Positions 2,776 through 50,472 are shown, numbered from the stretch's first letter. The stretch is DNA of 64,000 nucleotides from an uncultured Acidobacteriota bacterium (GCA_963805975.1 CAWDVR010000006.1:96001-160000); one strand, 5' to 3'. The notes: generated from the letters alone by a model not told the origin. Numbers and translations: made by a program.

Positions 2776-2800
2776 TTCTTCGGCAGAGTGTACACGAAAG

Positions 2801-2823: not shown

Positions 2824-2879
2824 CAACCTTGCCCAGGCCGTGTCAAACGGCCCTATCTCGGAGTGGGCGCTTCCTCCTA

Positions 2880-14671: not shown

Positions 14672-14815
14672 GAGGTCTCCTGGGGCGTCCTTCAGTCCTA
14701 CGAATCGTATAGGAGATTCAACGGCAGGTGCGGAGCGTCGGCTCCCGCTCTCACCCTAATACCTCCGGCCCCCGCGGTCGTCCCTGGTCTCGAACGTTGA
14801 CCCGAGGAGGACGAC

Positions 14816-16034
14816 ATGCGAAGCACTCTACGTTTTTTTCTTGCCTTGTGCCTGGCCTCGACGGCCGCCATCCGGGCGGCGGAGGCGGCCCCGCTCAGGG
14901 CCCAGGTGGCGCGCTGCAACGGCCTGGCGCTCGAGGACTCGGCCACCAAGGCGGTGGGGAACACCGAGGACCTGCGGACGATGGAGGTGCAGTTCGGCTA
15001 CGCGGCTTCGAGCGCCGCCACGAAGCAGGACGAGCTCGACGACACGGACACGGTCGAGATCTGCTCGGTGAGCCTCGGCTCCGGGGTCCGGTGCCCGTGG
15101 GCCGACGCGCAGGACGAAGCCTGGCTGGTCTTCGACAAGGCCCCGATCCGGGGCACGACGGCCGCCTCGTAGGGCAGGAGATCTTTATCCGCGCCGCGCC
15201 CATCGCGGCCGGGCAGCCGGTCCTGGGCGCCGCGGTCTGGGCGAAGATCACGGCACCCGGCGGCTCGACCCACTACTTGCAGCTCGACGACGACGGCCAG
15301 CACCAGGACGGCCGGGCGGACGACGGTCCCTACGGCGCCCTGTTCGTGGAGACCGGCCAGGCCGGCGCGTACTCGATCCGCGTGGTGGCGGCCGGCGTGT
15401 CCCCGGTCTCCGGCGCTCCCTTCCGCCGCGAGCAGATGCAGGCGGTGGCGCTGCGCCACGACCGCGACACCGACCGCGACGGCCTGCCGGACCTGTGGGA
15501 GCTGACCCACGGGTTCGACCCGCGGGCCACGGACGATCCCCGGTGGGCTGCGGCCCGACGGCGAGCGGCCCGTTCGAGATCGTGTTCAGCGGCCGCGGCC
15601 CGGTGAACGGCGTGCTGACGGACCGGGCGGACAACGATCGCCCCGCCTGCTACCGATTGCGTCCGCTGGTGGACGTCGCGGCGGGTGACTGGTCGGAGGG
15701 GGTCTGCGTGACCCCGCGCCCGGACCCGTTCCCGCCGCGGGTGGAGCTCACCCTGCTGCGCGCCTCGGCCTCCGAGGCCACGATCAGGATCGAAGCTTGG
15801 GAGATCCCGGCGCTGGGAGAGGAGGAGGAGCTGCTCGATCCCGAGACCCTAGTGAGCGGGGCGGCCGAGATGCGCATCTCCACCCGCGCCGACTTCGAGC
15901 GTGCGGCGTGGGAGCCGTACGAGCCCAAAGCCACGATCCGCCTCGACGGCAGTGGCCCGCAGACGATCTACGTCGAAGTGAGAGACGTGGCCGGAAACGT
16001 CTCCGACCCGGCCGAGCTGAGGGTGAAGGACTGA
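14816..16034 (+). pseudogene. Frameshifted secreted protein in three frames (signal peptide; choice-of-anchor-X-like segment; DxDxDGLPDxWE Ca-binding repeat; C-terminal Ig-like segment)
   Basis: GAGGAGG RBS and signal peptide at 14816. The coding sense moves near 15150 to LQLDDDGQHQDGRADDGPYGALF...DTDRDGLPDLWELTHGFDP, then near 15550 to ...QTIYVEVRDVAGNVS. Two -1 shifts would restore about 406 aa. Confidence 0.55.
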
Positions 16035-17473: not shown

Positions 17474-20400
17474 ATGACCAAGAGGTGCAGCAGGGACCGT
17501 GGACACGCGCGCGGGGCAAGGCTCGCCGTAGCGCTGCTCGCGGCGGCAGGTGCATGGACGGCCGGACCGGCCTTCGGCTCCGGCGAGGCCGTGCCCTTGA
17601 ACGCCTTCAACATTCCTCCCGGCGCCACGGTCACGATCACTTTCGACGTCAACGTCGACAGTCCGCTCGGCGTCTGCGCCTCGGCGGTCTCCAACCAGGG
17701 CACCGTCACCGGCAACAACTTCTCGAACGTCCTGACCGACGACCCGGACGCCGCCGGCGCCGCCAACCCGACGGTGACCGGCCTCGACGCCGTGGACCTC
17801 GCCATCACCAAGACGGACGGGGCCGCGAGCGAAGTGCCGGGCACCGGCGTCACCTACACCATTACGGTCACCAACGCCGGACCGTCCAGCGCCGTGGGCG
17901 CCACGGTGGCGGACACCTTCCCGGCGGCCCTCAGCGGCGTCACCTGGACCTGCGCCGCCTCGGCGGGCTCGAGCTGCACCAGCGGGCCGGTGGGCGGCAA
18001 CATCAACGATCTGGTGACGATTCTCTCCGGCGGCACCCTCACCTACACCGTCAACGCCACGGTCAGCGCCAGCGCCTCGGGCACCCTGGTCAACACCGCG
18101 ACAGTCACCAAGGCCGCCAACCAGATCGAGTGCAACCTCGCCAACAACAGCTCGACGGACACCGACACGCTCGCCCCGCAGGTCGATCTCGCGATCACCA
18201 AGACGAACGGCGTCACCTCGGTGGATGCCGGCAGCCCCACGACCTACACCATCACCGTCACCAACCCGGGCCCGAGCGACGCGGTGGGCGCCACGGTGGC
18301 GGACACCTTCCCGGCGGTCCTCACCGGCGTCACCTGGACCTGCTCCGCCTCGGCAGGCTCGAGCTGCACGGCCGGGCCGACCGCCGGCAACATCAACGAC
18401 GTGGTGACGGTGCGCGCCGGCGGCACGCTGACTTACTCCGCCACCGGCACGGTCTCCGGAACGGCCACCGGCACGCTCTCCAACACCGCCACCGTGACCG
18501 CGCCCGGCGGCACCACCGACACCAACGGCGGCAACAACAGCGCCACCGACAGCGACACCATCAACCCGCTGGCCGACCTCTCGATCACCAAGACCGACGG
18601 CGTCACCACGGCCGTGCCGGGGATGAGCGTCACCTACACCATCGTCGCCTCGAACGCCGGCCCGGCCACCGCCACCGGCGCCTCGGTGACTGACACCTTC
18701 CCAGTGAGCCTCACCTGCACCTGGACCTGCGTCGGGGCCGGCGGCGGCACCTGCACCGCGGGCCCGGTGGCGGGCAACATCGCGGACTCCGTCAACCTGC
18801 CGGCCAGCGCCTCGGTCACCTATACCGCGGTCTGCGACATCGCCGACGCCGCCACCGGATCGATCAGCAACACGGCGACGATCGGCGGCGGTGGAGTGGT
18901 CGACAACACGCCGGGCAACAACAGCGCCACCGACACCGACACGCTGCGGACCCTGGACTTCGGCGACGCGCCGCACTCCGTGCTCGGTCCGCCCTGGCAG
19001 TACCCGACGCTGCTGGCCGACAACGGCGCCCGCCACGGCGTGGTCACCGGCTTCCGCCTCGGTGCAGCCATCGACTCCGAGGCCGACGGCCAGCCGACCG
19101 CCAACGCCGACGGCGACGACCTCAACGGCGCCACCCCCGACGACGAGGACGGCGTCACTCTGCCGGCGTTCCTCGTCACCTGCGAGTCGGCGAGCGTGAC
19201 GGTCAACGCCTCCGCGGTGGGCAAGCTCGACGCCTGGGTGGACTTCAACCGCGACGGCGATTTCACCGACCCGGGCGAGAAGGCGATCAACAACCTGGCC
19301 CTGGTGGCCGGCGCCAACCCGGTGAGCCTGGCCGTGCCCTGCACGGCCACGGTGACGGCGCAGACCTTTGCCCGCTTCCGCCTCTCCACCGTGGGTGGCA
19401 TCGCCGCCAACGACGTGGCAGCGGACGGCGAGGTCGAGGACTATCCGGTGGCGATCCGCGGCCTCGACTTCGGCGATGCCGCCGATCCGTCCTATCCGAC
19501 CCTGGTGGCGTCGAACGGCCCGCGTCACGTGCTGGGCGGCGGCGGCCCGATCCTCGGCGCGCAGGTGGATGCCGAGGCCAACGGCCAGCCGAGCGCCGGT
19601 GCCAACGGCGACGACCTGGCGGGTCTCGACGACGAGGACGGCGTGACCTTCACCTCGCCGCTGGTCCCCGGCCAGACCGCGACGGTGAGCGTCACCGCCT
19701 CGGCGGCCGGCGTGCTCAATGCCTGGATCGACTTCAACGCCGACGGCGGCTTCGGTCAGCCCGGCGACCAGATCTTCACCAACGCGGCGGTCGCGCCGGG
19801 CCCCAACAGCCTCAGCTTCCCGGTGCCGGCAGGGGCGACCTCCAACACCGCCACCGTGGCCCGCTTCCGGGTGGCCACCGCGGGCGGCCTGTCGTTCACC
19901 GGCGCAGCGGCCGACGGCGAGGTGGAGGACCACCCGGTCACCACCGCGCCGGTCGCCGACCTCTCGATCACCAAGACCGACGGCTCCACGACCGAGGTGC
20001 CCGGCACCAGCGTCACCTACACCATCGTGGCCACGAACAGCGGCCCCAACCCGATCATCGGCGCCACGGTCACCGACACCTTCCCGGCGGCGATCAGCGG
20101 CGTGTCCTGGACCTGCGTCGGCGCGGGCGGCGGCACCTGCACGGCGGGCCCGGTGGCGGGCAACATCAACGACACGGGCAACCTGCCGGTCGGCGCCACG
20201 GTCACCTACACGGCCACGGGCACGATCTCGGCCGCGGCGACCGGTACGCTCGTCAACACCGCGAGCGTCGCCGTGCCCGCCTCGGCCTTCGATCCCAACG
20301 GCGCCAACAACAGCGCCACGGACACCGACACGCTGACGCCGCAGACCGACCTCGCGATCACCAAGACCGACGGCGCGGCTTCCGAGGTTCCTGGCACCGG

Positions 20401-22484
20401 CGTCACCTACACCATCGTGGTGACCAACGCCGGGCCCTCGAACGCTGTGGGCGCGACGGTGGCGGACACCTTCCCGGCGAGCATCAGCGGCGTCAACTGG
20501 ACCTGCGTCGCCGCGGGCGGTGCCTCCTGCGCCGCGGGCGGCAGCGGCAACATCAACGACACGGTGAACGCTGCCGGTAGGCGGCAGCGTCACCTACACC
20601 GCCACCGGCAACATCTCCGCCTCGGCCACCGGCACGCTCGTCAACACGGCGACCGTGACCGCGGCCGCCGGCGCCACCGACCCCAACCCAGGTAATAACA
20701 GCGCCACCGACACCGACACGCTGACGCCGCAGACCGATCTCGCGATCACCAAGACCGATGGCGCCGCCAGCGAGGTGCCCGGCACGCCGGTGACCTACAC
20801 CATCGTGGTGACCAACGCCGGGCCTTCGAACGCCGCGGGTGCGACCGTGGCGGACACCTTCCCGGCGGCGATCAGCGGTGTCAACTGGACCTGCGTCGCC
20901 GCGGGCGGCGCTTCCTGCGCCGCGGGCGGCAGCGGCAACATCAACGACACGGTGAACGTGCCGGTGGGCGGCAGCGTCACCTACACCGCCACCGGCAACA
21001 TCTCCGCCTCGGCCACCGGCACGCTCGTCAACACGGCGACCGTGACCGCGGCCGCCGGCGCCACCGACCCCAACCCGGGCAACAACAGCGCCACCGACAC
21101 CGACACGCTGGCCGCGGAGGCGGACCTCGAGATCACCAAGGAAGACAGCGCCGATCCGCCGCCGGCCGGCCAGGATCTGATCTACACCCTCACCGTGGAG
21201 AACCTCGGTCCGTCCGATGCGCTCAACGTGGTGGTGAGCGATGCGCTGCCCTCCGAGGTCACCTACGTGAGCGACGACTGCGGCGGCACCAACACTCCGC
21301 CGTGGACCTGGAACGTCGGCACCCTGGCGGACGGTGCCACGGTGACCTGCAACATCACGGTGTCGATCAACCCCACGCCGCCGGCCTCGATCTCCAACAC
21401 GGCGACCGTGGATTCCGACACCACGGACCCGGTCTCGGGCAACGACTCGGACACCGAAGAAACCCAGCTCGACGCCATTCCTCCCCAGGTGGACAACGTC
21501 GACAGCGTGGCCGGCACCGGCGACGGCGAGCTCACGGAGTGCGAGACCGCCAACGTCGAGGTCAGCCAGCTCCTCGTCACCTTCAGCGAGGAGATGAACG
21601 ATCCGCCGGGCGACACCGATCCGGGCGACGTGACCAACCCGGCGAGCTACCTGCTGGTCAAGCCCGGCCCGGACTTCCAGTTCGCGACCACCGGCTGCAC
21701 CGGGGTGGCGGGCGACGACGTGGCGGTGACCATCACCTCGGTGACCTACGACAGCGGCACCGACACCGCGACGCTCCACCTGGCCGGCGACCTCGCCGAC
21801 GCGCAGCACCGGCTCTACGCCTGTGCCAGCCTGACCGACCTGGCCGGCAACCCGCTCGACGGCGACGGCAGCCGCGGCCCGGTGGGCACGGACTTCGTGC
21901 GTGGCTTCCGCGTCGACGCCGACAACCTGCTGGCCAACGGACACTTCGACTGCAACCTCCTGAGCTGGACCGAGATCGAGCCGACCAGCGGCGAGGTGGA
22001 GTGGGATGGAGATGACGCGGACACCGCGGTCACCTCCGGCTCCACGGAGGTCGTCAACCTGATGCCGGGCCTCGACACCAGCTTCGGCCTGTCGCAGTGC
22101 GTGCCCGTGCCGGGCAGCACCAAGCTCGACCTCTCGTCGCGGGTACGCCTGACGGCCGGAGCGGGCGTCTCGCTCTCCTTCGTGCGCTCCTGCCAGTTCT
22201 TCTCGTCGGCCGCCTGCACCGGCAGCCTGGGCGGCCCGTCCGATGCCTTCCTGCTCTCCGACACCGGGGGCACCTGGCTGACGTTCGCCCGCCAGGTGGA
22301 CTCCGCCGCCGGCGCCGCCTCCGTCCGCTGTGAGTTCCGCTTCGCGACGCCGACCGGCGTCAGCTTCGACGGCGCGATCGACCAGCTCTTCCTGGGTCTC
22401 ACCGGGGAGATCTTCTCGGACGGCTTCGAGACCGGCGACACCAGCCAATGGACGCAGTGCGTCGGCCTGGGGTGCCCGCCATGA
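17474..22484 (+). CDS. Giant secreted surface protein (about 1669 aa once one +1 frameshift near 20570 is corrected): half DUF11, 7 DUF11 repeats, 2 GEVED domains, Ig-like and CBM-like domains, IFSDGFETGD tail
   Basis: Joins ORFs 17414..20695 and 20655..22484. Repeated DLAITKTD..VTYTI.VTN.GPS..VADTFP..NTATV..NNSATDTDT; two DFGDA..GEVED domains. Comparing adjacent repeats shows one extra base (aacgctgccg vs aacgtgccg). Confidence 0.85.
20306..21110 (+). repeat. Near-identical 387-nt tandem duplication (two DUF11 units)
   Basis: The NNSATDTDTL anchor starts at 20306, 20694 and 21081 (spacings 388 and 387 nt), with near-identical DNA between anchors. Confidence 0.85.
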
Positions 22485-22543
22485 GCCACCTACGGAGCGC
22501 CAGTGAATACAACCGTGAAGCCGCCTGCGAGGAGACTCCTAGC

Positions 22544-25500
22544 ATGACCAGATCCCTGAGCAGCACCATCAGGGTTGCACTCGACAGTAGGAAAACGCGG
22601 CGCGCCGCCGCGCGGAAGCTGGCGCTCCTCCTGGTGCTGGCCTCGAGCGTGGCGGCTCCCCAGGCAGGGGCCGAGGTGGGCTTGCAGTACGTGCCCGTGC
22701 CGGCCGTCGAGACCGCACTGCCGCCGCTGCCCCCGACCACCCTGTTCCCCGTACAGCTCGTGGTGGACGACGACGCTGCCGAGGGGGTGGTGGGAGTGGC
22801 CGGCCAGACAGCACGGCAGTTCCTGTGGTTCAACCGCTTCACCCCGGGCGTGCCGTTCTCGCTCGAGGAGGTCTGGGTGCTGTTCACACCGGGCCCCAAC
22901 ATGGCCCTGGGCAACGCCATCCAGCTCGCCATCTACTCCGACGCGGACGGCAACCCGGCCAACGGCGCCACGCTGCTCGCGAGCTTCAACCAGACCATCC
23001 TGGCGCTCGACGGCAACACCTTCTCCGTCTACCCGCTGCCGGCGCCGGTCGACTTCGACGGCGTGGGCGACCTGCTGATCGGCGTCATTCCCCGCTTCAT
23101 CGTCAGTGGCGTGACCTCTCCCACGCAGCCGGCTTCGATCGACACCACGGCGAGCGAGGGCCGCTCGTGGATCGGCGTCTGGTCCACCGACCCGCCCGAT
23201 CCGCCGGTGCTCGTGCCGCCGCCCGACCAGCAGATCTCGACCATCGACGGCTTCCTGCCCGGCAACTGGATGGTCCGCGGCTTCGGCACTCCGGCCGAGA
23301 CGCTCGCCATCCCGACTCTCGGCGGTGGCGGCCTGCTGCTCCTCGCCGGCCTGCTGGCGCTGGCGGCGGGCGCCGTGCTGCGCCGGCGGGCCCGCGGCGC
23401 GGCCCTCCTGGCCCTGGCGCTGGCGGTGGCGAGCCCGGCCCTGCCGGCCGTGGCCCAGACCAACATCGACACCTTCACCACCAACCAGGCCACGCTCAGC
23501 GCGCCGCCCGACTCGAGCTCGACGGCCACCGGGGGCGCCGACATCATCGGCACCCGCCGCGGCCTGGTGGCGAGGAACCTGACCGGCGTCGGCCCCACGA
23601 CGGCAGGAGTCACCGGCGGCAGCCTCACCTTGCTGGTCACCAATACCACCCCCGATTCGCGGGGCGAGGCGCGCCTTTCCTGGGACAACGACACGGCTCC
23701 CGGCACCCTGAACCCGACTGGCCTGGGTGGCGTGAACCTCACCACCGGCGGCGCGAGCGGCTTCCGCATCCGCGTCAACTCGGCGAGCGTTGCCGGCAGC
23801 GAGATCGAGATGGTCGTGCACTCGAACGCCACCTCCTCGTCGCGGGCCTCGCTGGTGCTGCCCCTCGTGGCCGCACCGCAGAACTTCGTGCTGCCGTTCT
23901 CCGAGTTCATCCAGGCCGGCACCAGCGCCGCCAACTTTGCGAGCGTCGGTGCCATCGAGATGACGGTGCGGAGCCGAGAGGGAACCGTGGTGCTGGACGA
24001 GGTGGTGACCGCCTTACCGGTGATCGCCGCCACCAAGGCAGACGCCCTGGTGATCGACAACGACAGCGACACCAAGGCCGATCCCGGCGACCGCGTGCGC
24101 TACACAGTGACCATCACCAACACCGGCAGCGAGGGGATCTCCGTCGACCTGACGGATACCGTGGACTCCAATACCACTCTGGTGGGCGGCTCGGTGAGCT
24201 CGACGCCGGTGGCGAAGAACGACCAGTACACCTGGTTCGGCAACGTCACCCTGACGGTGGACGGCACGCCTTTCCCGGCGCTGCTCGCCAACGACACCGA
24301 TCCGGACGGCGACACGGTGACCATCTCCGCCTTCGACGCCACCACGGCGCAGGGCGGCTCGGTCACGGGCGTGAACGTCAACACCGGCGAGTTCACCTAC
24401 AACCCACCCGCCGGCTTCCGCGGCGTGGACTCCTTCAACTACACCATCGTCGACAACGACGCACACACCTCGGTGGCCTCGGCGCGCATCACGCTCGAGG
24501 GCATCGTCTGGTTCGTCGACGACTCGAACACCACGCCGCCGCACCTCGGCACGCTGTCCGACCCGTTCCAGAGCCTGGCGAGCCTCGGGGGTTCCGACCC
24601 GGATGCGCCGGGGGACATCCTCTTCATCTTCGACGACGACGGCACCCCCTACGCCGGCGGCCTGGTCCTGGAAGCGAACCAGACCCTCCTGGGCGAGGCC
24701 GAGGGCTTGGTGCTCGGCGGCCAGACCATCGTGCCGGCGGGCGGCAGACCGCAGATCACCAACGCGGCGGGCGTCGGCCTGACGCTGGCGACCGCCAACA
24801 CCGTGCGCGGTCTCGACGTCCAGGCAACGAGCGGGGCCGGGATCGCCGGCACCTCCTTTGGCACCCTGACGGCCAGCAACGTCAACGTCATCAGCGCCGG
24901 CGGCGCGGCGCTCGACCTCGCGACCGGCAACCTGGCGGCGACCTTCGGCACCCTGTCCTCGAGCGGCACGGGCGGGCAGCGCGGCATCCAGCTGGTGACC
25001 GTCACCGGCTCGCTGACCGTGACCACCACGAGCCTCACCAACCCGACGACGCAGGGCATCCGTGTCGCCAGCTCGCCGGCGGTGGTGCTCGACTTCGGCA
25101 ACACCACCATCACCGACTCGGCGGTGGGCTCCGGCGCCACCGCCATCGGTATCGACGTGGCGACCGGCAACGCCGGCGCGAGCTTCACCTTCGACAGCCT
25201 TGCCGTGACCACCGATGCCGGCGCCGGCCTGCTGGCCAACGGCAGCGGCACCGTCAACATCGGCGGCGTGGGCAACACGATCAACGCCACGGGTGGCGCG
25301 GCGGTGGACATCACCTCGACCAGCCTGGGCAGCGGCGCCACGTTCTCGACGCTCACCTCCACCAACTCCGCCGGCAAGGGCGTCAACCTCGACACCGTCA
25401 CCGGCAGCTTCACCGCCACCGGCGGCTCGATCAGCGGCCCGGCCGGGATCGGCTTCGACCTCAACGCCGGCTCGGCGAACGTCACCTACGCCGGCTCGCT

Positions 25501-27280
25501 GAGCAACACGGCGAACAACTTCCTGATCGAGGTCACCGGCCGCACCGGCGGCACGGCGAGCTTCTCCGGGAACCTCTCGGGTACCAGCAACAGCGATGGC
25601 ATCCGGGTGGCGAACAACAACGTGAGCGGCTCACCCGTCATCAACTTCAGCGGCGCCACCAAGACCCTCAACACCGGCGCGTCCGCGGCCGTCACCCTCG
25701 ACAACAACGACGTGGCGACGATCAACTTCACGGGTGGTGCCCTCGACATCGACACCACCTCCGGCATCGGCTTCAACGCCATCAACGGCGCCGTGGGGAT
25801 CACCGTGCAGGGGAGCGGCAACACCATCGACTCGGGAAGCGGCACGGCGCTCAACGTCGTCGCCACCACCATCGCGGCGGCCGACCTCAACTTCCAGAGC
25901 ATCTCGGCCAACGGCGCCGCGAGCGGAATCGTGCTCAACGCGACCGGCGCCAGCGGCAATCTGCTAGTCACCGGGACGGGGGCCGCGAACAGCGGCGGCA
26001 CGATCCAGAACTCCACCAGCCACGGCGTCTCGCTGACCAACACGCTCGCCCCGTCGTTTACCTCGCTGCGCATTCAGAACAGCGCCGGCAGCGGCGTCTT
26101 CGGGACCCTGGTCAACGGGTTCTCCTACATCAACGGCCTGATCGACAACTCGGGCACCGGCCTCGCCGCCGAAGCCTCGAACATCGCCTTCAACACCACC
26201 GCGGCGGGCACGGAGAACAACCTCTCGGGAACGGTGACGATCACCGGCAACACCCTGACCAACGCCTACTACCACGGGGTCGACATCTTCAACTTCAGCG
26301 GCACGATCGCCGACGCCACGATCTCGGGGAACACCATCACCAGCACCAACTCGACGGCGACGTCGAAGGGCTCCGGCATCCGCTTCATCGCCTTCGGGTC
26401 GGCAGCGACGATCGCCAACGTCACCAGGGCGACGATCGCCAACAACATCATCTCCAACTTCCCCAGCGCCACCGGCATCATGGCGCAGGGCGGCAACGGC
26501 AACGCCGCGGGGCCGGCAGGCGTCTTCGGGACTGCCGGCAGCGGCAGCGACATCATCGCGATCACGGGCAACCGCGTCGCCGGCTTCAGCGCGGCCAACC
26601 GCCTCGGCACGCAAGCCATCCTCGCCGTGGTCAACGGCAAGGGCCAGGGCAACTTCAACGTCTCGAGCAACGGCACGGTGGCCAATCCGCTGACCAACTC
26701 CATCGGCACCACGATCGCGGTGTCGTCTCTCGGCCAGGCGGTGGTCACCGCGACGGTCTCGAGCAACGTCATCGTCTCGAACAACGCGGCAGGGGCCAAC
26801 GGCATCGGAGCAGGTACCAGTCAGACGTTCGGGGCGACGGATACCCCGAGCCTGACGGTCACGATCTCGAACAACCAGATCAGCCAGACGGACGGCAACG
26901 GCATCCTGGCCACGGCGCGCGATGCCACCGGAACGCTGCGCGCGAAGATCCAGAACAACACTGTGGCGGCGCCGCTGGCCGGCAACCGGAACGGAATCCG
27001 AATCGACGCTGGCAACGCCGTGAGCATCAACGACTCGGTTTGCTTGAACATCTCGGGCAACACGACCGCAGGCGTCGGCCTCTCTCCCGAGGGGATCGGC
27101 CTGCGCAAGCAAGGGACCGTCGCGGCGACCAACAACTTCGCCCTCCACGGATTCGCGACCTCCCCGGCCAACCAGGCGCAGACGGCGGCTTACGTCACCG
27201 GACAGAATCCGGGTAGCTCGAGCGGGACCCTGATCATCGCCGGCGACAATTTCAACTCCCCGACCTGTTCGTTCCCTTGA
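22544..27280 (+). CDS. Giant secreted protein / probable polyprotein: signal peptide, domain 1, internal IPTL-CTERM plus second signal peptide, beta-sandwich domain, half DUF11, cadherin/Big_9-like Ig, long beta-helix
   Basis: GAGGAG RBS before ATG 22544 (alternative ATG 22481 overlaps the upstream stop). Internal IPTLGGGGLLLLAGLLALAAGAVLRRR; LLANDTDPDGD..GEFTYNPPAGFRGVDSFNYTI; about 900 aa of N/T/G/S-rich right-handed beta-helix-like repeats. Confidence 0.85.
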   Translation: MTRSLSSTIRVALDSRKTRRAAARKLALLLVLASSVAAPQAGAEVGLQYVPVPAVETALPPLPPTTLFPVQLVVDDDAAEGVVGVAGQTARQFLWFNRFTPGVPFSLEEVWVLFTPGPNMALGNAIQLAIYSDADGNPANGATLLASFNQTILALDGNTFSVYPLPAPVDFDGVGDLLIGVIPRFIVSGVTSPTQPASIDTTASEGRSWIGVWSTDPPDPPVLVPPPDQQISTIDGFLPGNWMVRGFGTPAETLAIPTLGGGGLLLLAGLLALAAGAVLRRRARGAALLALALAVASPALPAVAQTNIDTFTTNQATLSAPPDSSSTATGGADIIGTRRGLVARNLTGVGPTTAGVTGGSLTLLVTNTTPDSRGEARLSWDNDTAPGTLNPTGLGGVNLTTGGASGFRIRVNSASVAGSEIEMVVHSNATSSSRASLVLPLVAAPQNFVLPFSEFIQAGTSAANFASVGAIEMTVRSREGTVVLDEVVTALPVIAATKADALVIDNDSDTKADPGDRVRYTVTITNTGSEGISVDLTDTVDSNTTLVGGSVSSTPVAKNDQYTWFGNVTLTVDGTPFPALLANDTDPDGDTVTISAFDATTAQGGSVTGVNVNTGEFTYNPPAGFRGVDSFNYTIVDNDAHTSVASARITLEGIVWFVDDSNTTPPHLGTLSDPFQSLASLGGSDPDAPGDILFIFDDDGTPYAGGLVLEANQTLLGEAEGLVLGGQTIVPAGGRPQITNAAGVGLTLATANTVRGLDVQATSGAGIAGTSFGTLTASNVNVISAGGAALDLATGNLAATFGTLSSSGTGGQRGIQLVTVTGSLTVTTTSLTNPTTQGIRVASSPAVVLDFGNTTITDSAVGSGATAIGIDVATGNAGASFTFDSLAVTTDAGAGLLANGSGTVNIGGVGNTINATGGAAVDITSTSLGSGATFSTLTSTNSAGKGVNLDTVTGSFTATGGSISGPAGIGFDLNAGSANVTYAGSLSNTANNFLIEVTGRTGGTASFSGNLSGTSNSDGIRVANNNVSGSPVINFSGATKTLNTGASAAVTLDNNDVATINFTGGALDIDTTSGIGFNAINGAVGITVQGSGNTIDSGSGTALNVVATTIAAADLNFQSISANGAASGIVLNATGASGNLLVTGTGAANSGGTIQNSTSHGVSLTNTLAPSFTSLRIQNSAGSGVFGTLVNGFSYINGLIDNSGTGLAAEASNIAFNTTAAGTENNLSGTVTITGNTLTNAYYHGVDIFNFSGTIADATISGNTITSTNSTATSKGSGIRFIAFGSAATIANVTRATIANNIISNFPSATGIMAQGGNGNAAGPAGVFGTAGSGSDIIAITGNRVAGFSAANRLGTQAILAVVNGKGQGNFNVSSNGTVANPLTNSIGTTIAVSSLGQAVVTATVSSNVIVSNNAAGANGIGAGTSQTFGATDTPSLTVTISNNQISQTDGNGILATARDATGTLRAKIQNNTVAAPLAGNRNGIRIDAGNAVSINDSVCLNISGNTTAGVGLSPEGIGLRKQGTVAATNNFALHGFATSPANQAQTAAYVTGQNPGSSSGTLIIAGDNFNSPTCSFP

Positions 27281-27378
27281 GGAGACAGGTCCGGGAGTAG
27301 CGAAAGCGCAGCCGGGGGAGGCATAGGCCACCACCGATCCGGAGCCCGACGAGCTCCAGAACCAGGAGGAGGAGACGA

Positions 27379-27885
27379 ATGGCGGAACCGTTCTTGTCCG
27401 AGATACGAATCATGAGTTTTGGCTACGCCCCGCGGGGTTGGGCGCTCTGCAACGGGCAGCTCTTGCCCATCAACCAGAACCAGGCGCTGTTCTCGCTGCT
27501 GGGCACCACCTTCGGCGGCGACGGGCGGGTGAACTTCGCGCTTCCCGACCTTCGCAGCAGGGCGCCGATCCACGTGGGCTCGGGCCACACGCTGGGCGAA
27601 CGCGGCGGCGAGCAGGCGCACACGCTGTCGATCGCGGAGCTGCCGGAGCATACGCATGTCTGGAATGCGAATGGCTCACCTGCCACCACCAATACGCCGG
27701 CCGCCTCGCTGCTCTTGGCTCAGTCCACCGGCGATTCGGCCTGGGGACCCGCGTCGAACCTGGTGGCGATGAGCCCGGCCACGATCGTCAACGTCGGTGG
27801 CAGCCAGGCGCACCTGAACATGCAGCCGTTCTTGACCCTCACCTTCAGCATCGCTCTTGTGGGCATCTTCCCGAGCCCGAACTGA
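27379..27885 (+). CDS. Phage tail-collar domain protein (microcystin-dependent protein/MdpB-like), copy 1
   Basis: FLSEIRIMSFGYAPRGWALCNGQLLPINQNQALFSLLGTTFGGDGRVNFALPDLRSR; HTH (HxH) motif; HLNMQPFL; GGAGGAG RBS. Confidence 0.92.
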   Translation: MAEPFLSEIRIMSFGYAPRGWALCNGQLLPINQNQALFSLLGTTFGGDGRVNFALPDLRSRAPIHVGSGHTLGERGGEQAHTLSIAELPEHTHVWNANGSPATTNTPAASLLLAQSTGDSAWGPASNLVAMSPATIVNVGGSQAHLNMQPFLTLTFSIALVGIFPSPN

Positions 27886-27895
27886 GGAGACGCCA

Positions 27896-28405
27896 ATGGC
27901 ACAACCTTATGTAGGCGAGATCCGGATGTTCGCTGGCAACTTCGCGCCGGCAGGGTGGATGTTCTGCGAGGGCCAGTTGCTGCCGATCTCGGAAAACGAG
28001 ACGCTGTTCAACCTCATCGGGACGACCTACGGCGGCGACGGTCAGTCGACCTTCGCCCTGCCCGATCTGCGCGGGAGGATCCCGATCCACCAGGGCAACG
28101 GCTTCATCCTGGCCGAGACTGGCGGAGCAGAGCAGATCACGCTCACGATCAATCAGATCGCCGCGCACTCCCATCCCGCGCTCGGGTCCACCAACACCGG
28201 GACCGGGACGGCGCCCCTGAACAACGTGCTGTGCAACCTGCCAGTCGCCACGAACTCGGCCTATGGCACTGACAACCCGCAGGCCACCTTGAGCCCGCAG
28301 TGCATATCGCCGGTCGGCGGAAGCCAGCCGCACACCAACTTCCAGCCCTACCTCTGCATCAATTTCATTATTTCCCTGTTCGGGATCTTCCCGCCCCCGA
28401 GCTAG
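27896..28405 (+). CDS. Phage tail-collar domain protein, copy 2
   Basis: YVGEIRMFAGNFAPAGWMFCEGQLLPISENETLFNLIGTTYGGDGQSTFALPDLRGR; HSH; HTNFQPYL; GAGGAG RBS. Confidence 0.92.
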   Translation: MAQPYVGEIRMFAGNFAPAGWMFCEGQLLPISENETLFNLIGTTYGGDGQSTFALPDLRGRIPIHQGNGFILAETGGAEQITLTINQIAAHSHPALGSTNTGTGTAPLNNVLCNLPVATNSAYGTDNPQATLSPQCISPVGGSQPHTNFQPYLCINFIISLFGIFPPPS

Positions 28406-28414
28406 GAGGGAGAC

Positions 28415-28933
28415 ATGGCCGATCCGTTTGTCGCAGAGATCCGCATCTTCCCGTTCAACTTCGCGCCCAAGGGTTGGGCGTGGTGCGACGGTCAGCTTCT
28501 GCCGTTGTCGCAGAACACGGCTCTTTTCTCGCTCCTGGGCACGACCTATGGAGGAAACGGCAAGAGCAACTTCGCTCTTCCGGACCTCCAGGGGCGCTCC
28601 CCCATGCACCCCGGGCAGGGTCCCGGCCTCTCGCTGCACGACCTCGGCGAGACCGGTGGCAGCGAGACGGTGACCTTGCTCGAGAGCGAGATCCCATCGC
28701 ACAGCCACGGCTTGAGAGCTTCTGCTCAGGACGCGACGACGCGCATCGTAAGTGGCCAGGAGCCGGCGACCGGCATCGGGGTCTCGATCTACGGGCCCCA
28801 ACCCGGGAGCGTGACGCTAAGCCCCGCCGTGCTCGCGCCCGCTGGCGGCGACCAGCCGCACAACAACCTGCAGCCTTACCTCACGTTCTACTTCTGCATC
28901 GCACTCCAGGGCGTTTTCCCGCCTCGTACCTAG
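28415..28933 (+). CDS. Phage tail-collar domain protein, copy 3
   Basis: FVAEIRIFPFNFAPKGWAWCDGQLLPLSQNTALFSLLGTTYGGNGKSNFALPDLQGR; HSH; HNNLQPYL; GGAGG RBS. Confidence 0.92.
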   Translation: MADPFVAEIRIFPFNFAPKGWAWCDGQLLPLSQNTALFSLLGTTYGGNGKSNFALPDLQGRSPMHPGQGPGLSLHDLGETGGSETVTLLESEIPSHSHGLRASAQDATTRIVSGQEPATGIGVSIYGPQPGSVTLSPAVLAPAGGDQPHNNLQPYLTFYFCIALQGVFPPRT

Positions 28934-28959
28934 GCCGATAGCGATCGTGGTCCCTTGCG

Positions 28960-29010
28960 CGACCTCCCGGCCCGATGACGAGCCGGGAGGTCGTGGCTGT
29001 TTTTCTGTTT
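28960..29010 (+). terminator. Terminator/attenuator-like hairpin after the tail-collar genes
   Basis: Perfect 12-bp stem CGACCTCCCGGC / GCCGGGAGGTCG (28960-28993), then TGGCTGTTTTTCTGTTT. Confidence 0.55.
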
Positions 29011-29049
29011 GTTCTCCAATCTTGCTTATGCCCAATCTGGAGGTGAGCC

Positions 29050-29811
29050 ATGGGATGGCCCGAGGGGAGCGCTGCGCCCGAGCGCGGCGGAGTCGACCGC
29101 CGTGAGTTCCTGACCCTGACCTCGACCGCTGCCGCCGGAGCCTGCCTGGCCGGTGGCGCCGGGGCGAGCACGCTCCTCGGCCTGCACGCGCCGCTGGATC
29201 TGGCCATGTCCGTGGGCTTCCTCGCCGGCAGCGAGGAGTACGATCACTTCTGGGCCTTGCCCTGGAACGTGGCCCAAGACCCGTTCGACCCGCCAGAGCT
29301 CGAGGTGGTGGCCGCCGACCGCCTGCCGCTGGGCGATCAGACCCTCGCCGGCGGCTCGGTCTGGATGACCGTGCACGGCCTCTATCCGCGGCTGCCGAAG
29401 CGGGAAGTGCTCGCCTTCCGCAGCGTCAACCTGGTGGTGATGTTTCCCTCCCCAGAGCCCGCCCGGCCGGCGCCGCTGCCGTTCATCTCGTGGGGCCTGC
29501 GCCGCAACCCGGCGCGCTCGAGCGGTGCGCGCACCCACTTCGTGGTACCCCTGCGCCAGGAGGACGGCGGCCTGGTGCTGGCCCTCGAGCTGATCCGGAA
29601 CGTCCGCGGCGCCCTGGTCACCGACCGTGCGTTCACCGACTTCACCGTGGACTGGCAGGATGGCCGCCCCAAGCTCCAGCGCGGCATCTACCTTCTGGGC
29701 CTCGCCCCCGGCACCTGGAGCCGGGGCGACCGGCTGCCGACGGCCGGCCAGGAGCCCCGTGACGAGCTCTGCTCGGTGGTTGTAAGCTTCGAGCCCATCC
29801 TGGAGCCCTAG
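29050..29811 (+). CDS. Tat-exported hypothetical protein
   Basis: VDRREFLTL twin-arginine motif followed by a hydrophobic Ala/Gly stretch; GGAGGT RBS; beta-rich body of unknown family. Confidence 0.75.
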   Translation: MGWPEGSAAPERGGVDRREFLTLTSTAAAGACLAGGAGASTLLGLHAPLDLAMSVGFLAGSEEYDHFWALPWNVAQDPFDPPELEVVAADRLPLGDQTLAGGSVWMTVHGLYPRLPKREVLAFRSVNLVVMFPSPEPARPAPLPFISWGLRRNPARSSGARTHFVVPLRQEDGGLVLALELIRNVRGALVTDRAFTDFTVDWQDGRPKLQRGIYLLGLAPGTWSRGDRLPTAGQEPRDELCSVVVSFEPILEP

Positions 29812-29816
29812 CAACG

Positions 29817-30353
29817 GTGCACGGCGAGAACGGCTTCGAGACTGCCCCGGCACTGCCGGGCTCGATCAGCTTCCGGCCGATCCGTGGCGACGACCGCGAG
29901 TTCCTGTACCGGATCTACGCTTCGACGCGGGCGGACGAGCTGGCGATGGTGGACTGGCCGGAGGAGCAGAAGGCGGGCTTCCTGCGCCAGCAGTTCGAGG
30001 CCCAGCACCATCACTACCAGGAGTACTACAAGGACGCGGAGTTCCTGCTGGTGGAGAAGGACGGCGTGCCCGTCGGCCGCTTCTACGTGGCGCGCTGGGA
30101 GAAGGAGATCCGGCTGGTGGACATCGCGCTCCTTCCCGAGCATCGCGGCGCCGGCCTCGGTGGAGCACTGGTCGCGAGCCTGCTGGCCGAGGGCGCCGCC
30201 GCCGGCAAGCCGGTCTCGATCCACGTCGAGGTCTTCAACCCGGCGCTGCGGCTCTACCGGCGGCTCGGCTTCGAGCCGGCGGGCGAGCGGGGTCCCTACG
30301 TCCTGATGCGCTGGACCCCGCCGGCAACCTCTTACGCAAACACCGCCTCGTAG
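29817..30353 (+). CDS. GNAT-family N-acetyltransferase (tail-collar-cassette type)
   Basis: FLYRIYASTRADEL, FLRQQFEAQHHHY, RLVDIALLPEHRGAGLG (motif A), NPALRLYRRLGF (motif B). Confidence 0.9.
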   Translation: MHGENGFETAPALPGSISFRPIRGDDREFLYRIYASTRADELAMVDWPEEQKAGFLRQQFEAQHHHYQEYYKDAEFLLVEKDGVPVGRFYVARWEKEIRLVDIALLPEHRGAGLGGALVASLLAEGAAAGKPVSIHVEVFNPALRLYRRLGFEPAGERGPYVLMRWTPPATSYANTAS

Positions 30354-30631
30354 AGCGCTCCCTTCGCGTCCTTCCCCACCGGGACGAGGAAGATCTCGAG
30401 CGACTCGAAGGCCGGGTTCGTGAGCGCATAGATGCTCTGCGGCAGCACCGGCCCGGCGGGCCCGCGAAAGATCAGCGCGAACGGCTTGCGCTTGGCGTGA
30501 GGCACGGTTTCGCCTCCCAGGGCACGGGTCTGGGTCAGCTCGAGAGTAAGCCGCTCGGTGGGGGAGAGCAGCAGCTCGAAGCTGTGGTTCAAATGCGGGT
30601 CGAACATGGCCTTGTCGAGCGTGTCGAGCAT
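30332..30631 (-). CDS. DUF6916-family protein
   Basis: KPFALIFRGP...LPQSIYAL...LEIFLVPVG....YEAVFA pattern; 99 aa; convergent on the GNAT with a 22-nt overlap. Confidence 0.75.
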   Translation of the reverse strand: MLDTLDKAMFDPHLNHSFELLLSPTERLTLELTQTRALGGETVPHAKRKPFALIFRGPAGPVLPQSIYALTNPAFESLEIFLVPVGKDAKGALYEAVFA

Positions 30632-30801
30632 CGGTCGTCTCCGGGAACCGGGCTGAAAGAACGAGCCAACCTTAGAGCAAGCGCCGCGGGCTGACAACCG
30701 CGGCCGTCTAAGAGCCGGTGGACGGCGGTACGATGGGGTGAAACACTGTTCTCCCTTGGAGCGCCCGTCAGTCTGGCCTGCCCGTGGGCCTGGAGGATCG
30801 T

Positions 30802-33800
30802 ATGCGGATCTCCGAAAGCAGAGTGCGGATCGTCGGCTGGGCGCTCGCGGCCTTGGGCCTAGCGGGCGGAGTGGTCGTCGGCTACTTGATGTCGGGACCC
30901 TCCCGCGAGCTGGTCGAGCGGAGCTCCGGCGGCAAGAAGATGACGAGCCTTCAGCTCGCATTCGAGGCTCAGCGGGCCGAATGGATCATCAAAGACTGGC
31001 GTGGCGATGAGCCACCCCCATTTCCAGACACGGACGGGAAGAAGGCTACCGCGCGGCGCCCCGTCCTCGCTGAAGCACGCAAGAACCTCTCGCTCGACGC
31101 CTGGCTCATTCCCTTCTACGTCGCCCTGCTGACCGGCCTCTGCCTGGTGCTCTCCGGCGCCTACGGCAAATGGCGGGACAACCCGTGGCTGGTCCTCGCT
31201 GCGCTGCCGGCCGTTGCCGGGGCCCTGGACTATCAGGAGAACGCGCTCCTCGCCCAGGAGATCGACCTGGTGGCGGCGGGAGGCGTGCTCGGCGGGCGGT
31301 TGCCGCTCGCGGTGGGTCTGGTCGCGTCGCTCAAGTTCCTGCTCCTGGGCATCGTCTTCCTGGCTCTGCTGATCGTCGGTATCGCGCTCTTCCGCGCTTG
31401 GCTGGCCGGCGCCCTCCGACCCCCACCGAAGCAGGCGTGGGTACCGCTCGAGGGAGCGATCGCCGCGGAGCGGGCCTACCTGGCGGGCCGCAGGAGGTGG
31501 GCGCTCTCTGAAGCGGAGGCTGCGGCCGGCCAGCGGCCGGTGGGTCTGGCCTTCTCGGGCGGCGGAATCCGCGCGGCCACCGTCTGCCTGGGCGCGATGC
31601 GCGCCCTCTCCAAGCTCGAAGTGCTGCCCCGGGTCGACTACCTCTCGACGGTGTCGGGCGGCGGCTACATCGGCTCGGCACTGTCCTCTCTGCTGTCGAT
31701 CAACCGCCGCACCGCGCAGGCCTCGGCGCACGGGCTCGACGACCAGTACCGCTTCAGGCCCGGCGACAAAGCGCTGTTGACCACGCAAGCGGAGCGCTTT
31801 CCCTTCGAGCCCGACCGCAACCTGCAAGAGGAGCTGCGGAAGGATCTCGGCGGGCGGTACGACGGCCGCGTCCAGCTCGGGCACCTGCGCACCCACGGCG
31901 ACTTCCTGATCCGCACCAAGCGGCTCATCCACCGTGACGTGCTGCGCACGGTGGGCACGGTTCTGGGCGGCATCTTCTACCACCTGCTGATGGGCTTCCT
32001 GGTCCTCGCTCTCGTCAGCTCGGCCTACCTGATCGCGGTGTGGCTGATGGCGGATTCAGCGATCGGCAGCGCACCGGAGAACCTGCTGGGCCAGCCTGAG
32101 TTCGCAACCTACTGGCGCCAGCTCTTCGACTTCGGCGACGGCTCGGCACGGCCGTTTTTCCTGGCGATCTTCGTGGGCTTGGTCGCGCTGCCGACCGCCA
32201 TGGCGCTCTGCTCGCTGATCTGGTTCCTGCCGGAGCGCTGGTTCCGCCGCTCCGGCGACACGGTGGAGGAGAACCGTGAGTACCACTCGCTCTGGGCTCT
32301 CTTCACCATCACGCTCCTCGCCGCCATCGCCGTCACCAACTTCGTGATCGAGCGCGAAGGGTACCAGTTGGCCAACATCACTCTGCCGATGGGCGTCTAC
32401 GTCGGCGGCTGGCTCGCCAGCCTGATCCTGCACGCGGTGGTCGCCGTCTCGCCTTCGTTCGGCCGCAACCAGCGTTCCCGGTTCGCCGCCTGGAAGGGGA
32501 TCTTCAACTACCTGACGGCGATCTCGGTGCTGGTCATCCTGGTGCCCTTCGTTCTCGCCTGGATCAACAAGGACGCCAGCCGGAGCTCGGTGTTCGCCAA
32601 CTGGCCGGCGAAGGAGAGCCTGGCGTGGCTGGCCTCTCTCTTCGGCAGCGGCTGGCTCGCCAAGGGCGCGCTCGGTCAGGCGGCGTCCGGCGCCGCGGGC
32701 GGAGGTGGCCGGCTGGCGGCGATCAAGAAGCTGCCGGGAACGCTGCGCAACCTTCTCCTGGGCTTCCTCGTCACCGTGCTGGTGGTGGTGGGCCTGGTGC
32801 TCGTGACCGCCTTTCTGCTGCGTTGGGAGCTGGTGGCCGGTCTCGATCCCGATCCTCTGAGCTTCCGGCTCGGCGTGCTGGGCGCTGCGCTGCTCGCCTT
32901 TCTCCTGCTGGGGTGGGCGATCGATTTCAACAAGCTGTCGCTCCATTTCTTCTATCGTGACCGGTTGGTCGAGGCTTACCTCCAGACCGAGGGACAGGTG
33001 CCGCCAGACGCCCCCGCGGCAGAGGTACCGGGCAGCCTCGATCTGTTGCGCGACAACGGCGAGATGCGCCTCGTGCAGCTGCACGGCGTGCGCGAGGAGC
33101 CGCAGCCCGCGACGCGCGGACCTGCTGCAGCGCGTACCGCGCCCGCAGCCGGCTCGACGGCCCTGCCGAGAGATCTCAACCTCGTGGAGCGGGCGCTCCA
33201 GGCTCTGCCCTTCGGACCCGCGGCCCGCACGCCGGGCGAGCTGGCTCCGGTCGAGGCGGTCACCGGCGCGCCGCTCCACCTGATCGTCACCTGTTTGAAC
33301 CTCACCCGCTCGCGCGACATGACGCGCCGCAGCCGGAAGTCCGACACGTTCGTGTTCTCGAAGCTCTTCTGCGGCTCGGACACCACCGGCTACATGGACA
33401 CCCGGCTCTACCGGAGCGGCGAGACCAAGCTCGCTCGCGCCATGGCCGCCTCCGGCGCGGCGGCCAACACGGCGATGGGCTTCCATACCTTCTTCGCCCA
33501 GGCCATGGCCATGACCCTGTTCAACGTGCGGCTCGGCCAGTGGTTCGAGAACCCGCGCTTCAGGAACGGCGCCCGGGCGCACCGGCGTGAGGGCTGGGTG
33601 TTCTGGCCCGGCTACCTGTGGCAGGAGGTGCGCGGGGCGAGCGATGCGAGCCACCGGCTGGTCCACCTCTCGGACGGCGCGCACACCGGCGACAATCTCG
33701 GGCTCTATCCGCTGCTCCAGCGCCGCTGCCGCCTGATCGTCTCCTGCGACGCGGAGGCCGACCCGGATCTCTGCTTCGGCTCTTTCACCGAGGTGGTGCG

Positions 33801-34215
33801 GCAGGTGGAGATCGATCTCGGCATCAGGATCGACATCGAGCTGGGAGCGATCCGCCCGGACAAGGCGACCGGGTTCTCCACGCGGCCTTTCGCCCTCGGC
33901 AGGATCACCTATCCGGAGGACAAGGAGCGCGGTATCAAGCAGGAGGGGGGGTGGTTGCTGCTCATCAAGGCCTCGCTCTGCGGCTGCGAGAGCGAGACTC
34001 TGCGCACCTACAAGAGCCGCCATCCGGCCTTCCCGCACGAGACCACGCTCGACCAGTTCTTCGACGACGCGCAGTTCGAGGCCTACCGCGAGCTGGGCGA
34101 GAGCATGATGGAGCGCGCCCTGGGCAAGGAGCTCTGGGAGCTGCTGCGCGCCAAGCCCGAGTGGTTCCGGAAGTGGCGAAAGGATCTGGGCGAGGTGCTG
34201 CCCACATCTTCCTAA
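30802..34215 (+). CDS. Multi-pass membrane patatin/cPLA2-like phospholipase
   Basis: GLAFSGGGIRAA (oxyanion), YLSTVSGGGYIG (Ser), HLSDGAHTGDNLG (Asp), FPHETTLDQFFDDAQFEAYRELG; many TM helices; GGAGG RBS. Confidence 0.85.
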   Translation: MRISESRVRIVGWALAALGLAGGVVVGYLMSGPSRELVERSSGGKKMTSLQLAFEAQRAEWIIKDWRGDEPPPFPDTDGKKATARRPVLAEARKNLSLDAWLIPFYVALLTGLCLVLSGAYGKWRDNPWLVLAALPAVAGALDYQENALLAQEIDLVAAGGVLGGRLPLAVGLVASLKFLLLGIVFLALLIVGIALFRAWLAGALRPPPKQAWVPLEGAIAAERAYLAGRRRWALSEAEAAAGQRPVGLAFSGGGIRAATVCLGAMRALSKLEVLPRVDYLSTVSGGGYIGSALSSLLSINRRTAQASAHGLDDQYRFRPGDKALLTTQAERFPFEPDRNLQEELRKDLGGRYDGRVQLGHLRTHGDFLIRTKRLIHRDVLRTVGTVLGGIFYHLLMGFLVLALVSSAYLIAVWLMADSAIGSAPENLLGQPEFATYWRQLFDFGDGSARPFFLAIFVGLVALPTAMALCSLIWFLPERWFRRSGDTVEENREYHSLWALFTITLLAAIAVTNFVIEREGYQLANITLPMGVYVGGWLASLILHAVVAVSPSFGRNQRSRFAAWKGIFNYLTAISVLVILVPFVLAWINKDASRSSVFANWPAKESLAWLASLFGSGWLAKGALGQAASGAAGGGGRLAAIKKLPGTLRNLLLGFLVTVLVVVGLVLVTAFLLRWELVAGLDPDPLSFRLGVLGAALLAFLLLGWAIDFNKLSLHFFYRDRLVEAYLQTEGQVPPDAPAAEVPGSLDLLRDNGEMRLVQLHGVREEPQPATRGPAAARTAPAAGSTALPRDLNLVERALQALPFGPAARTPGELAPVEAVTGAPLHLIVTCLNLTRSRDMTRRSRKSDTFVFSKLFCGSDTTGYMDTRLYRSGETKLARAMAASGAAANTAMGFHTFFAQAMAMTLFNVRLGQWFENPRFRNGARAHRREGWVFWPGYLWQEVRGASDASHRLVHLSDGAHTGDNLGLYPLLQRRCRLIVSCDAEADPDLCFGSFTEVVRQVEIDLGIRIDIELGAIRPDKATGFSTRPFALGRITYPEDKERGIKQEGGWLLLIKASLCGCESETLRTYKSRHPAFPHETTLDQFFDDAQFEAYRELGESMMERALGKELWELLRAKPEWFRKWRKDLGEVLPTSS

Positions 34216-42266: not shown

Positions 42267-42296
42267 GCCTGCCGGCACGCCCCGCCTCGAGCTCCC

Positions 42297-50453: not shown

Positions 50454-50472
50454 GGACCCAAGGAGAACGCGC

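Follow-up and report, generated by a model that had tools for sequence, protein, structure and literature searches.

A widespread bacterial cassette combines three phage tail-collar paralogues with a giant beta-helix protein whose tip co-varies with the collar heads

What might three stand-alone phage tail-collar genes be doing in a bacterial chromosome, next to the gene of a giant protein? Genes annotated as "phage tail collar" or "microcystin-dependent protein", presumably the family labelled COG4675, are common in bacterial genomes, and to our knowledge no cellular role has been assigned to them. The question is raised by a locus at positions 17474-30631 of a 64,000-nucleotide (nt) stretch of DNA from an uncultured Acidobacteriota bacterium (GCA_963805975.1, CAWDVR010000006.1:96001-160000), called the window here. 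A preliminary description of this DNA had proposed a phage-fibre-like adhesin apparatus at this locus. The core of the system is a cassette made of a giant protein with a beta-helix domain (giant B), three collars (A, B and C), a GNAT acetyltransferase and a DUF6916 protein. The variable heads of the collars co-vary with the tip of the beta-helix. The preferred reading, which we hold to have about an even chance of being right, is that collars A, B and C come together in a predicted heterotrimer and dock onto the cognate beta-helix, with which they form an allele-matched surface module.

All eight genes of the locus were found by an open reading frame (ORF) and Pfam scan of the window at the coordinates and in the orientations given here and further below, which confirms the co-oriented gene set with a convergent DUF6916 gene claimed in the preliminary description. 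The core genes and their parts are the following, with residues of giant B counted from position 22448.

22448..27280, + strand: giant B, core; ORF of 1610 amino acids (aa), likely start ATG 22541
25805..26137, + strand: conserved beta-helix block of giant B, about aa 1120-1230; tracks the collar bases and is the crossover zone of the swap described below
26138..27277, + strand: variable, type-defining beta-helix part of giant B, aa 1231-1610; tracks the collar heads
27379..27885, + strand: collar A, 168 aa; PF07484; head about 27664-27795; H91-x-H93
27896..28405, + strand: collar B, 169 aa; PF07484; head about 28181-28312; HxH; type-specific YGTD motif
28415..28933, + strand: collar C, 172 aa; PF07484; head about 28700-28831; H96-x-H98
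29817..30353, + strand: GNAT acetyltransferase, core; PF00583; motif A intact
30332..30631, - strand: DUF6916, 99 aa, core; single copy; no signal peptide

Among 201 genomes of the class, which include the window's genome and G179 (unpublished), 58 carry three or more collars, six carry one and none carries two. DUF6916 is present in 56 of the 58 triplet genomes and the triplet in 56 of the 60 DUF6916 genomes, and the association of these genes is therefore not due to chance. Five genomes of 70-730 contigs with only DUF6916 or the beta-helix gave no collar match. The cross-phylum set comprises the best 80 of at least 588 confirmed loci, those closest to the window's collar A, and is spread over Acidobacteriota, Pseudomonadota, Chloroflexota, Verrucomicrobiota, Bacteroidota, Actinomycetota and Gemmatimonadota; the collars stand in the fixed order A-B-C at 75 of these loci. 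The 37 loci with full flanks hold the triplet, in this order, in 37 cases, GNAT in 36, the beta-helix in 34 and DUF6916 in 33, the giant gene lying upstream or downstream. The recurrence of collar, GNAT and DUF6916 genes, which the preliminary description had put forward, is borne out by this neighbourhood check, as the cassette is syntenic across phyla. Further recurrent neighbours were sought among 1345 ORFs; none occurred at more than six loci and no dedicated transporter was found.

The beta-helix is the large partner shared by these loci. Giants encoded beside collar A have dissimilar N-terminal parts but resemble one another at their ends. A beta-helix profile of 400 aa (38 rows from 36 genomes) matches 57 of the 201 class genomes. 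Triplet genomes account for 53 matches out of 58, genomes that have the triplet or DUF6916 for 55 out of 62, and the remaining 139 genomes for 2. Triplet genomes outside profile building match in 17 of 22 cases, and 34 of the 38 matches in unused genomes lie within 15 kilobases (kb) of a collar or DUF6916. The domain is C-terminal where the giant gene is upstream of the collars; it is internal, with 400 to over 2000 aa after it, where the gene is downstream. The link between collars and large beta-helix protein supposed by the preliminary description is thus supported as a functional one, by this co-occurrence and by the co-variation that follows.

Each collar can be divided, by homology to T4 gp37, into a head (aa 96-139, 31% mean identity) and a base made of the rest (84%). 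Distances were compared at the 85 loci, of 91, that hold all parts. Collar distance follows beta-helix tip distance with a rho of 0.33; split by part, the rho is 0.50 for head and tip, 0.17 for base and tip and 0.09 for head and GNAT. In partial correlations over the 91 loci, head and tip give 0.476, with 0/200 permutations as high, and base and tip -0.001; the base is correlated instead with the conserved block (0.228, 1/200 permutations), for which the head gives 0.051. In a column-matched test, with heads reduced to 52 variable columns, as many as the base has, the values are 0.40 for the head vs 0.11 for the base. Tip type was also predicted by nearest neighbour for 46 loci in tip types with four or more members: the head gave it for 43, the base for 22, the conserved block for 24, GNAT for 13 and DUF6916 for 16 (largest type, 29). 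At 22 loci where the giant is downstream or opposite, ranked among 62 upstream-type loci with L076 left out, the best tip match had a median rank of 2.5/62 by head and of 21-30 by other parts. A held-out test was made with 97 further loci, 46 of which gave 47 usable pairs, one duplicate being dropped; over the 46 pairs, the head placed the best tip match at a median rank of 1.5/91, with 36 pairs in the top ten, and the base at 33, with 14 pairs.

The 85 loci fall into 26 tip clusters. The window's own tip type has 13 members from several phyla and in both gene orders. Carriers of the cassette that are in culture include Chiayiivirga flava DSM 24163 (L047, of the window's tip type), Flavobacterium phragmitis (L102), Spirosoma luteum (L119) and Mesorhizobium erdmanii (L093). 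Gly124 of head B is present at 13/13 loci of this type vs 0/72 others, and the YGTD-type motif at 3/4 same-type and 0/42 other held-out loci. Where two giants accompany one triplet, their tips are 38-56% alike at 11 of 12 loci (one locus counted twice), against a background median of 25%.

The window's locus itself has a composite ancestry. Giant B is 57-77% identical to that of L006, a relative from the same family, over aa 101-1200 and 25-28% identical over aa 1201-1600; compared with L046 and L047 (Lysobacterales), it shows 19-49% before aa 1201 and 52-79% over aa 1201-1600. Collar identities are 73-84% with L046-L048 and 70-76% with L006, whereas GNAT and DUF6916 are 52% and 48% identical to L006 vs 43-46% and 31-38% to L046-L048. 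Judged from these identities, the beta-helix end and the collars are swapped together at this locus. Breaks are also seen in two contigs from the soil sequencing run X2. In one of them, the 1544 nt from 28836 onwards contain 68 differences (about 96% identity over Tat-GNAT) and 360 nt over the base of collar C contain 56; the collar C head is replaced by 155 other letters. The other, possibly from another strain, is close to the window up to 25509, with 8 differences in 209 nt, and more distant after 25645, with 45 in 230.

The three collars match PF07484 at 93-103 bits (cut-off 24), with identities of 46-52% to the first; the genome has no others. They are intact and strongly conserved. Their lineages are distinct and ancient: in a quick tree with 93 rows, taken from the window and from every third of 90 loci, two changes of the A/B/C label are enough, the minimum, against a shuffled mean of 44. 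Their profile matches the long tail fibre of PDB 8kec (E 2.6e-8). In T4 gp37, the collar is formed by N- and C-terminal segments, between which is inserted a needle with His-bound iron and a receptor-binding tip (PMC6957217). The HxH of the needle is invariant in 91/91 rows of each collar paralogue and is a putative metal site. Collar N-termini are almost invariably M-A/S-E/Q/D-P or M-D-P-F. Two or three tandem triplets per locus are seen at L051, L060, L124, L037 and L042, and at viral L127 and L128; the giant gene mostly precedes each triplet at L051, L060, L037 and L042. Divergent triplets of a different subfamily, in another order (e.g., B-C-A), occur at L033, L036 and L125; L033 and L036 have DUF11-type neighbours, and L033 and L125 lack a beta-helix match.

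Giant B consists of an N-terminal domain, internal membrane segments, a Big_9/cadherin-like domain and the C-terminal beta-helix, of which the variable part includes the cap helix and Cys1532/Cys1607. For the last 400 aa, the structure model shows a right-handed beta-helix and a cap helix (predicted local distance difference test score 78.7). The best fold match of this model is AlgE4 (Z 27.7, root-mean-square deviation (rmsd) 2.8, 295 aligned), followed by PfbA (Z 25.9, rmsd 3.4, 315 aligned), RbmB (25.3) and tailspikes (20-25). The region has neither a Pfam family nor a PHROG match, and Foldseek with the model returned nothing at E <= 0.001. With 3295 clusters at E <= 1e-30, the family is a large one; it is characterized by a conserved block, placed here at aa 1110-1200, by Asn ladders and by the Cys pair. 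Its likeness to tailspikes, suggested in the preliminary description, holds for the fold only, as cellular glycan enzymes and PfbA score alike, PHROGs give no match and the domain is found in 0/79 viral collar loci; a tailspike origin taken as shown was rejected on these grounds. At aa 285-338, giant B matches NF033207 (midcut-by-XrtH) with an E of 1e-5 and 25.6 bits, below the cut-off of 45. This IPTL-like motif and its hydrophobic segments are a possible anchor or processing site, and a midcut-by-XrtH-like mechanism is possible. The genome also holds an xrtH exosortase gene at C1:1502870-1503319 and six C-terminal IPTL-type proteins elsewhere, and at L018 the N-terminal part ending in the IPTL-like motif is a separate ORF. 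Giants share traits of fibrillar adhesins: DUF11, GEVED and Big_9 repeats, membrane segments and, in relatives, a type IX secretion system (T9SS) tail, the giant proteins of L102 and L122 ending in a T9SS sorting domain.

These elements can be assembled into the following mechanism. By homology to T4 gp37 and to the tail of the DSLV2 virophage, collars A, B and C would form a metal-bound fibre-tip trimer with one chain of each. The giant would be exported and its beta-helix held out on an Ig-like stalk, where the variable heads would bind the matching beta-helix. The contact is possibly side by side, with the bases at aa 1120-1230 and the heads on the variable rungs further along; a monomeric, asymmetric partner would be the reason for three different chains. 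Adhesion would be the output of the module. GNAT and DUF6916 would provide a separate, type-independent cytoplasmic aid to maturation or export, and the Tat protein an optional periplasmic helper; that GNAT acetylates the collar N-termini and that DUF6916 escorts the collars is a guess. The preliminary description had placed the collars at the tips of an adhesin apparatus. Their membership of a phage-fibre-tip family stands, and the picture of a free distal tip needs changing because the variable heads match the cell's own beta-helix type.

Several points weigh against a matched surface module. Export is the weak point of every surface model, because the collars have no signal peptide and no transporter gene recurs beside the cassette. 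Co-variation of head and tip fits direct binding and a shared external ligand alike. Ten of the 46 held-out pairs fall outside the head top ten, and at L032 two dissimilar tips (29%) stand beside one triplet. The loci are related and the permutations ignore phylogeny. The 80-locus set under-samples other collar subfamilies. No beta-helix match is found in 5 of the 58 triplet genomes and 3 of the 37 full-length cross-phylum loci, and 41 of the 91 loci are scored without a Tat partner. Finally, the usual gene order makes neighbours of tip and collars, which one tract can move together. This last point is the basis of another explanation, in which co-variation is the hitch-hiking of neighbouring DNA and collars and giant act independently. 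Indeed, at most loci no more than about 100 nt separate the tip from collar A (median 80), so that a single tract can carry both. However, the signal remains where the giant is downstream or opposite, and the head-tip rho is still 0.47 at the 23 loci whose collars lie closer to GNAT than to the tip; moreover, the bases flank the heads within the same genes, yet they do not track the tip. Hitch-hiking alone is thus very improbable. Even less credible is that the collars are fibres of a contractile injection system or the remnant of a prophage or tailocin. This would fit the PHROG tail and tail-fibre matches, the type VI secretion system (T6SS) 10 kb away and the triplet in 27 of the 36 genomes with a phage-type sheath. 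Among the 58 triplet genomes, however, TssB is found in 16, a phage-type sheath in 27 and neither in 24, including one-contig genomes (this tally also includes G004), and a T6SS or eCIS fibre or a prophage remnant is largely refuted. A contractile machine is not required for the cassette. In addition, G133 has the cassette and tssB on separate contigs, no phage structural gene and no sheath, tube or baseplate gene recurs within 7 kb, the collars are not decayed, and of 79 viral collar loci, eight have three or more collars, three GNAT, one DUF6916 and none the beta-helix. The preliminary view that the region is not a phage therefore withstood the check for a prophage or tailocin remnant.

The other explanations accept the matching of head and tip and place it differently. 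In two-site recognition without mutual binding, beta-helix and heads would bind the same outside target and be swapped together for retargeting. This accounts for the head-tip co-variation equally well, the closest solved fold relatives of the beta-helix act on or bind polysaccharides, and the heads of T4 gp37 and DSLV2 bind lipopolysaccharide (LPS) or OmpC (PMC6957217, PMC12724248). On the other hand, it leaves the collars only the beta-helix protein, the sole shared large partner, as attachment site, and the signal between base and conserved block would still imply contact there. An enzyme role of the beta-helix is doubtful, since there is no invariant acidic pair: no Asp or Glu exceeds 63% in 91 rows and only E1243 reaches this value, although type-specific catalytic sites are possible. 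We regard two-site recognition as unlikely but deserving attention. Heads on one cell might instead bind the same-type beta-helix on another, in an identity tag for allele-specific aggregation or kin recognition. The many tip types, the switch of type between close relatives, the replaced collar C head of the X2 contig and the position of the heads at the outward-binding end of phage fibres speak for this idea, which we nevertheless find rather doubtful: the cassette has no toxin, immunity or fusion gene as a recurrent neighbour, the same type across phyla would blur identity, and the anchor of the collars on the donor cell is left unexplained. A bolder version, unlikely but slightly less so, is that of a phage fibre tip turned round. 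Three-chain receptor-binding heads would be aimed at the bacterium's own polymorphic beta-helix as lock and key, the pair being swapped between phyla and serving between cells as a tag of identity or for partner choice; the leaderless key would be exported along an undescribed route that depends on GNAT and DUF6916. Lastly, the trimer might act undisplayed, inside the cell or the periplasm, as a cognate plug or a folding or export aid for the beta-helix. Leaderless collars, a twin-arginine helper at 50/91 loci and type matching would suit such a chaperone; the export or anchor signals of the giants (T9SS tail of L102 and L122) together with the Cys pair indicate that the giant likely folds outside the cytoplasm, and a needle with a metal site would be odd for a chaperone. 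This last possibility is improbable. The matched surface module, in which the collar trimer would bind the cell's own beta-helix, is the reading retained here.

The remaining features of the locus are accessory to the core or are parts of giant B and of the gap after collar C.

17474..22484, + strand: giant A, accessory; DUF11 x7 / GEVED x2; about 1669 aa if read through, frame broken at 20571
22410..22484, + strand: C-terminal IFxDGFE-type tag of giant A, from a motif search
23300..23461, + strand: IPTL-like motif and two hydrophobic segments of giant B, aa 285-338, from a profile match and hydropathy
28981..28998, + strand: hairpin resembling a terminator, after collar C and before the Tat gene, a consensus match only
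29050..29811, + strand: twin-arginine (Tat) protein, 253 aa; predicted beta-sandwich; optional slot

GNAT matches PF00583 with 47.8 bits (cut-off 20.7) and its R-x-x-G-x-G motif A is conserved. DUF6916 gave no sequence match in the PDB and nothing in a structure-atlas search. Over the 85 loci, GNAT distances follow those of DUF6916 (rho 0.39), and collar distances give 0.00 with GNAT and 0.13 with DUF6916. The Tat protein has no Pfam match, is unrelated to the collars and is predicted to be a beta-sandwich of no named family. Its best comparison with a C2 domain reaches a Z of 5.8 (rmsd 3.8, 118 aligned); Foldseek found no match at E <= 0.001 (best E 4e-3), and the C2 leads of the structure-atlas search were at chance level. 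The twin arginine is present in at least 90% of 31 rows of the family, which were partly chosen on the RR motif, and TatC is present in the genome; the protein is a predicted Tat substrate. Across the 91 loci, the slot is occupied by this 253-aa family at 28, by a twin-arginine DUF6916 at 22, by both at none and by neither at 41, the last count including a few missed twin-arginine DUF6916 genes. Lineage may be behind the mutual exclusion of the two fillers. Tat piggy-backing as a general export route for the collars was rejected in view of the loci with neither. Relatives of the Tat protein are also encoded a few kb from the collars at L021:430-1092, L030:2534-3208, L031:3785-4582 and L038:15182-15916, often directly after a second giant gene.

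Giant A was cast as the core stalk in the preliminary description. This role was rejected: its GEVED part finds matches at just 4 of 120 other loci and a DUF11 relative is present at 6 of 40 class loci, which makes it a local extra rarely present elsewhere. Giant A is read as two ORFs, 17474-20695 and 20655-22484, separated by one extra C at 20571 that is missing from the adjacent repeat copy. The relative L006 has a single ORF of 1660 aa, 59-70% identical, and the alignment switches frame at 20569-20571. The frameshift is an assembly error or a recent mutation. The tssC and tssF genes of the window are also split over frames, and an indel-prone assembly is therefore likely behind the split genes. 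The C-terminal IFxDGFExGDxSxW tag is common to giant A and 42 other ORFs of the genome; genome-wide, 43 of the 44 matches to the IFxDGFE-type motif lie within 30 aa of the C-terminus. A literature search found no paper on this tag.

The arrangement of the genes is less uniform than the tightly spaced operon first described. DUF6916 overlaps the end of the GNAT gene by 22 nt, and a gap of 116 nt holding the hairpin breaks the spacing between collar C and the Tat gene; a sigma-70-like promoter was looked for at the locus and none was found. Upstream, at 14728-16034 (+), an M16 peptidase and a DegP-like protease flank a group of short, fragmented ORFs that have no Pfam match and may be one broken gene. 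DUF6916 is directly followed by a 1143-aa membrane patatin-like protein (30784-34215, +) and a Ser/Thr kinase (34252-35904, +), neither of which recurs beside other cassettes. The T6SS cluster lies 10 kb downstream at 40860-56951 (+), with tssK, tssL, tssM, tssA, tssB, tssC, hcp, tssE, tssF, tssG and clpV; across genomes it shows no linkage with the cassette. An ORF with an eCIS_core domain follows at 62824-63978 (+), and phage-type sheath matches are found on the other contigs C2 and C3. The locus had been described as free of capsid, terminase, sheath and integrase genes; a PHROGs scan of 42 ORFs of the window, chosen by codon composition, found no capsid, terminase or integrase family, but the sheath genes tssB and tssC are present in the T6SS cluster.

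Known systems offer partial parallels. In the DSLV2 virophage tail, three stand-alone PF07484 proteins assemble 1:1:1 into a heterotrimer whose collar is conserved and whose head is variable (PMC12724248). Both systems have three consecutive, co-oriented, stand-alone PF07484 genes of distinct lineages. Those of DSLV2 are viral, encode about 200 aa, stand beside a minor capsid gene and are associated with predicted capsomer docking and Synechococcus LPS binding, whereas those of the cassette are chromosomal, encode 168-172 aa and accompany a cellular beta-helix giant, a Tat protein, GNAT and DUF6916. T4 gp37 and gp12 resemble the cassette proteins in that both terminal segments, N and C, build the collar and that the inserted needle bears His metal sites and leads to a distal tip; HxH, the putative site of the cassette, is invariant there. 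The T4 proteins are the homotrimeric ends of long virion fibres, while the cassette collars are stand-alone, without a shaft, with one invariant HxH site, in three lineages and without virion genes. A loose precedent for a fibre tip bound to a separate beta-helix partner is T2-type gp38, a beta-helix-containing protein that sets specificity at the gp37 trimer's tip (PMC12892980). It is small and viral with a polyglycine sandwich, whereas the cassette partner is a cellular protein of 1500-3000+ aa. Tailspikes have the same right-handed parallel beta-helix, with Z 20-28 to tailspikes and cellular enzymes alike, and giant B differs by its Ig-like stalk and membrane segments outside a phage context. 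Fibrillar adhesins, for which GEVED was defined and DUF11 stalks noted, also have a repeat stalk, shuffled terminal domains and lineage-specific anchors such as the T9SS tail in Bacteroidota; they are single-chain, and none in the available part of that paper has a co-encoded fibre-tip triplet, GNAT and DUF6916 (PMC10952558). In the available text of PMC1635311, PF07484 is listed only as a phage marker, and COG4675 proteins appear in soil metaproteome tables (PMC5579227). A literature search, with subscription papers and supplements outside its scope, found no paper on the cassette.

The cassette is thus a real, undescribed and widespread system built from known folds. The collars now have a likely partner, in the shape of an unnamed beta-helix family of thousands of clusters, and the cassette divides into a type-specific module (beta-helix end and heads) and a type-independent one (GNAT and DUF6916). 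If binding is true, a cellular heterotrimeric phage-fibre tip would be an allele-matched subunit of a surface protein, which would imply an undescribed export route for leaderless folded proteins.

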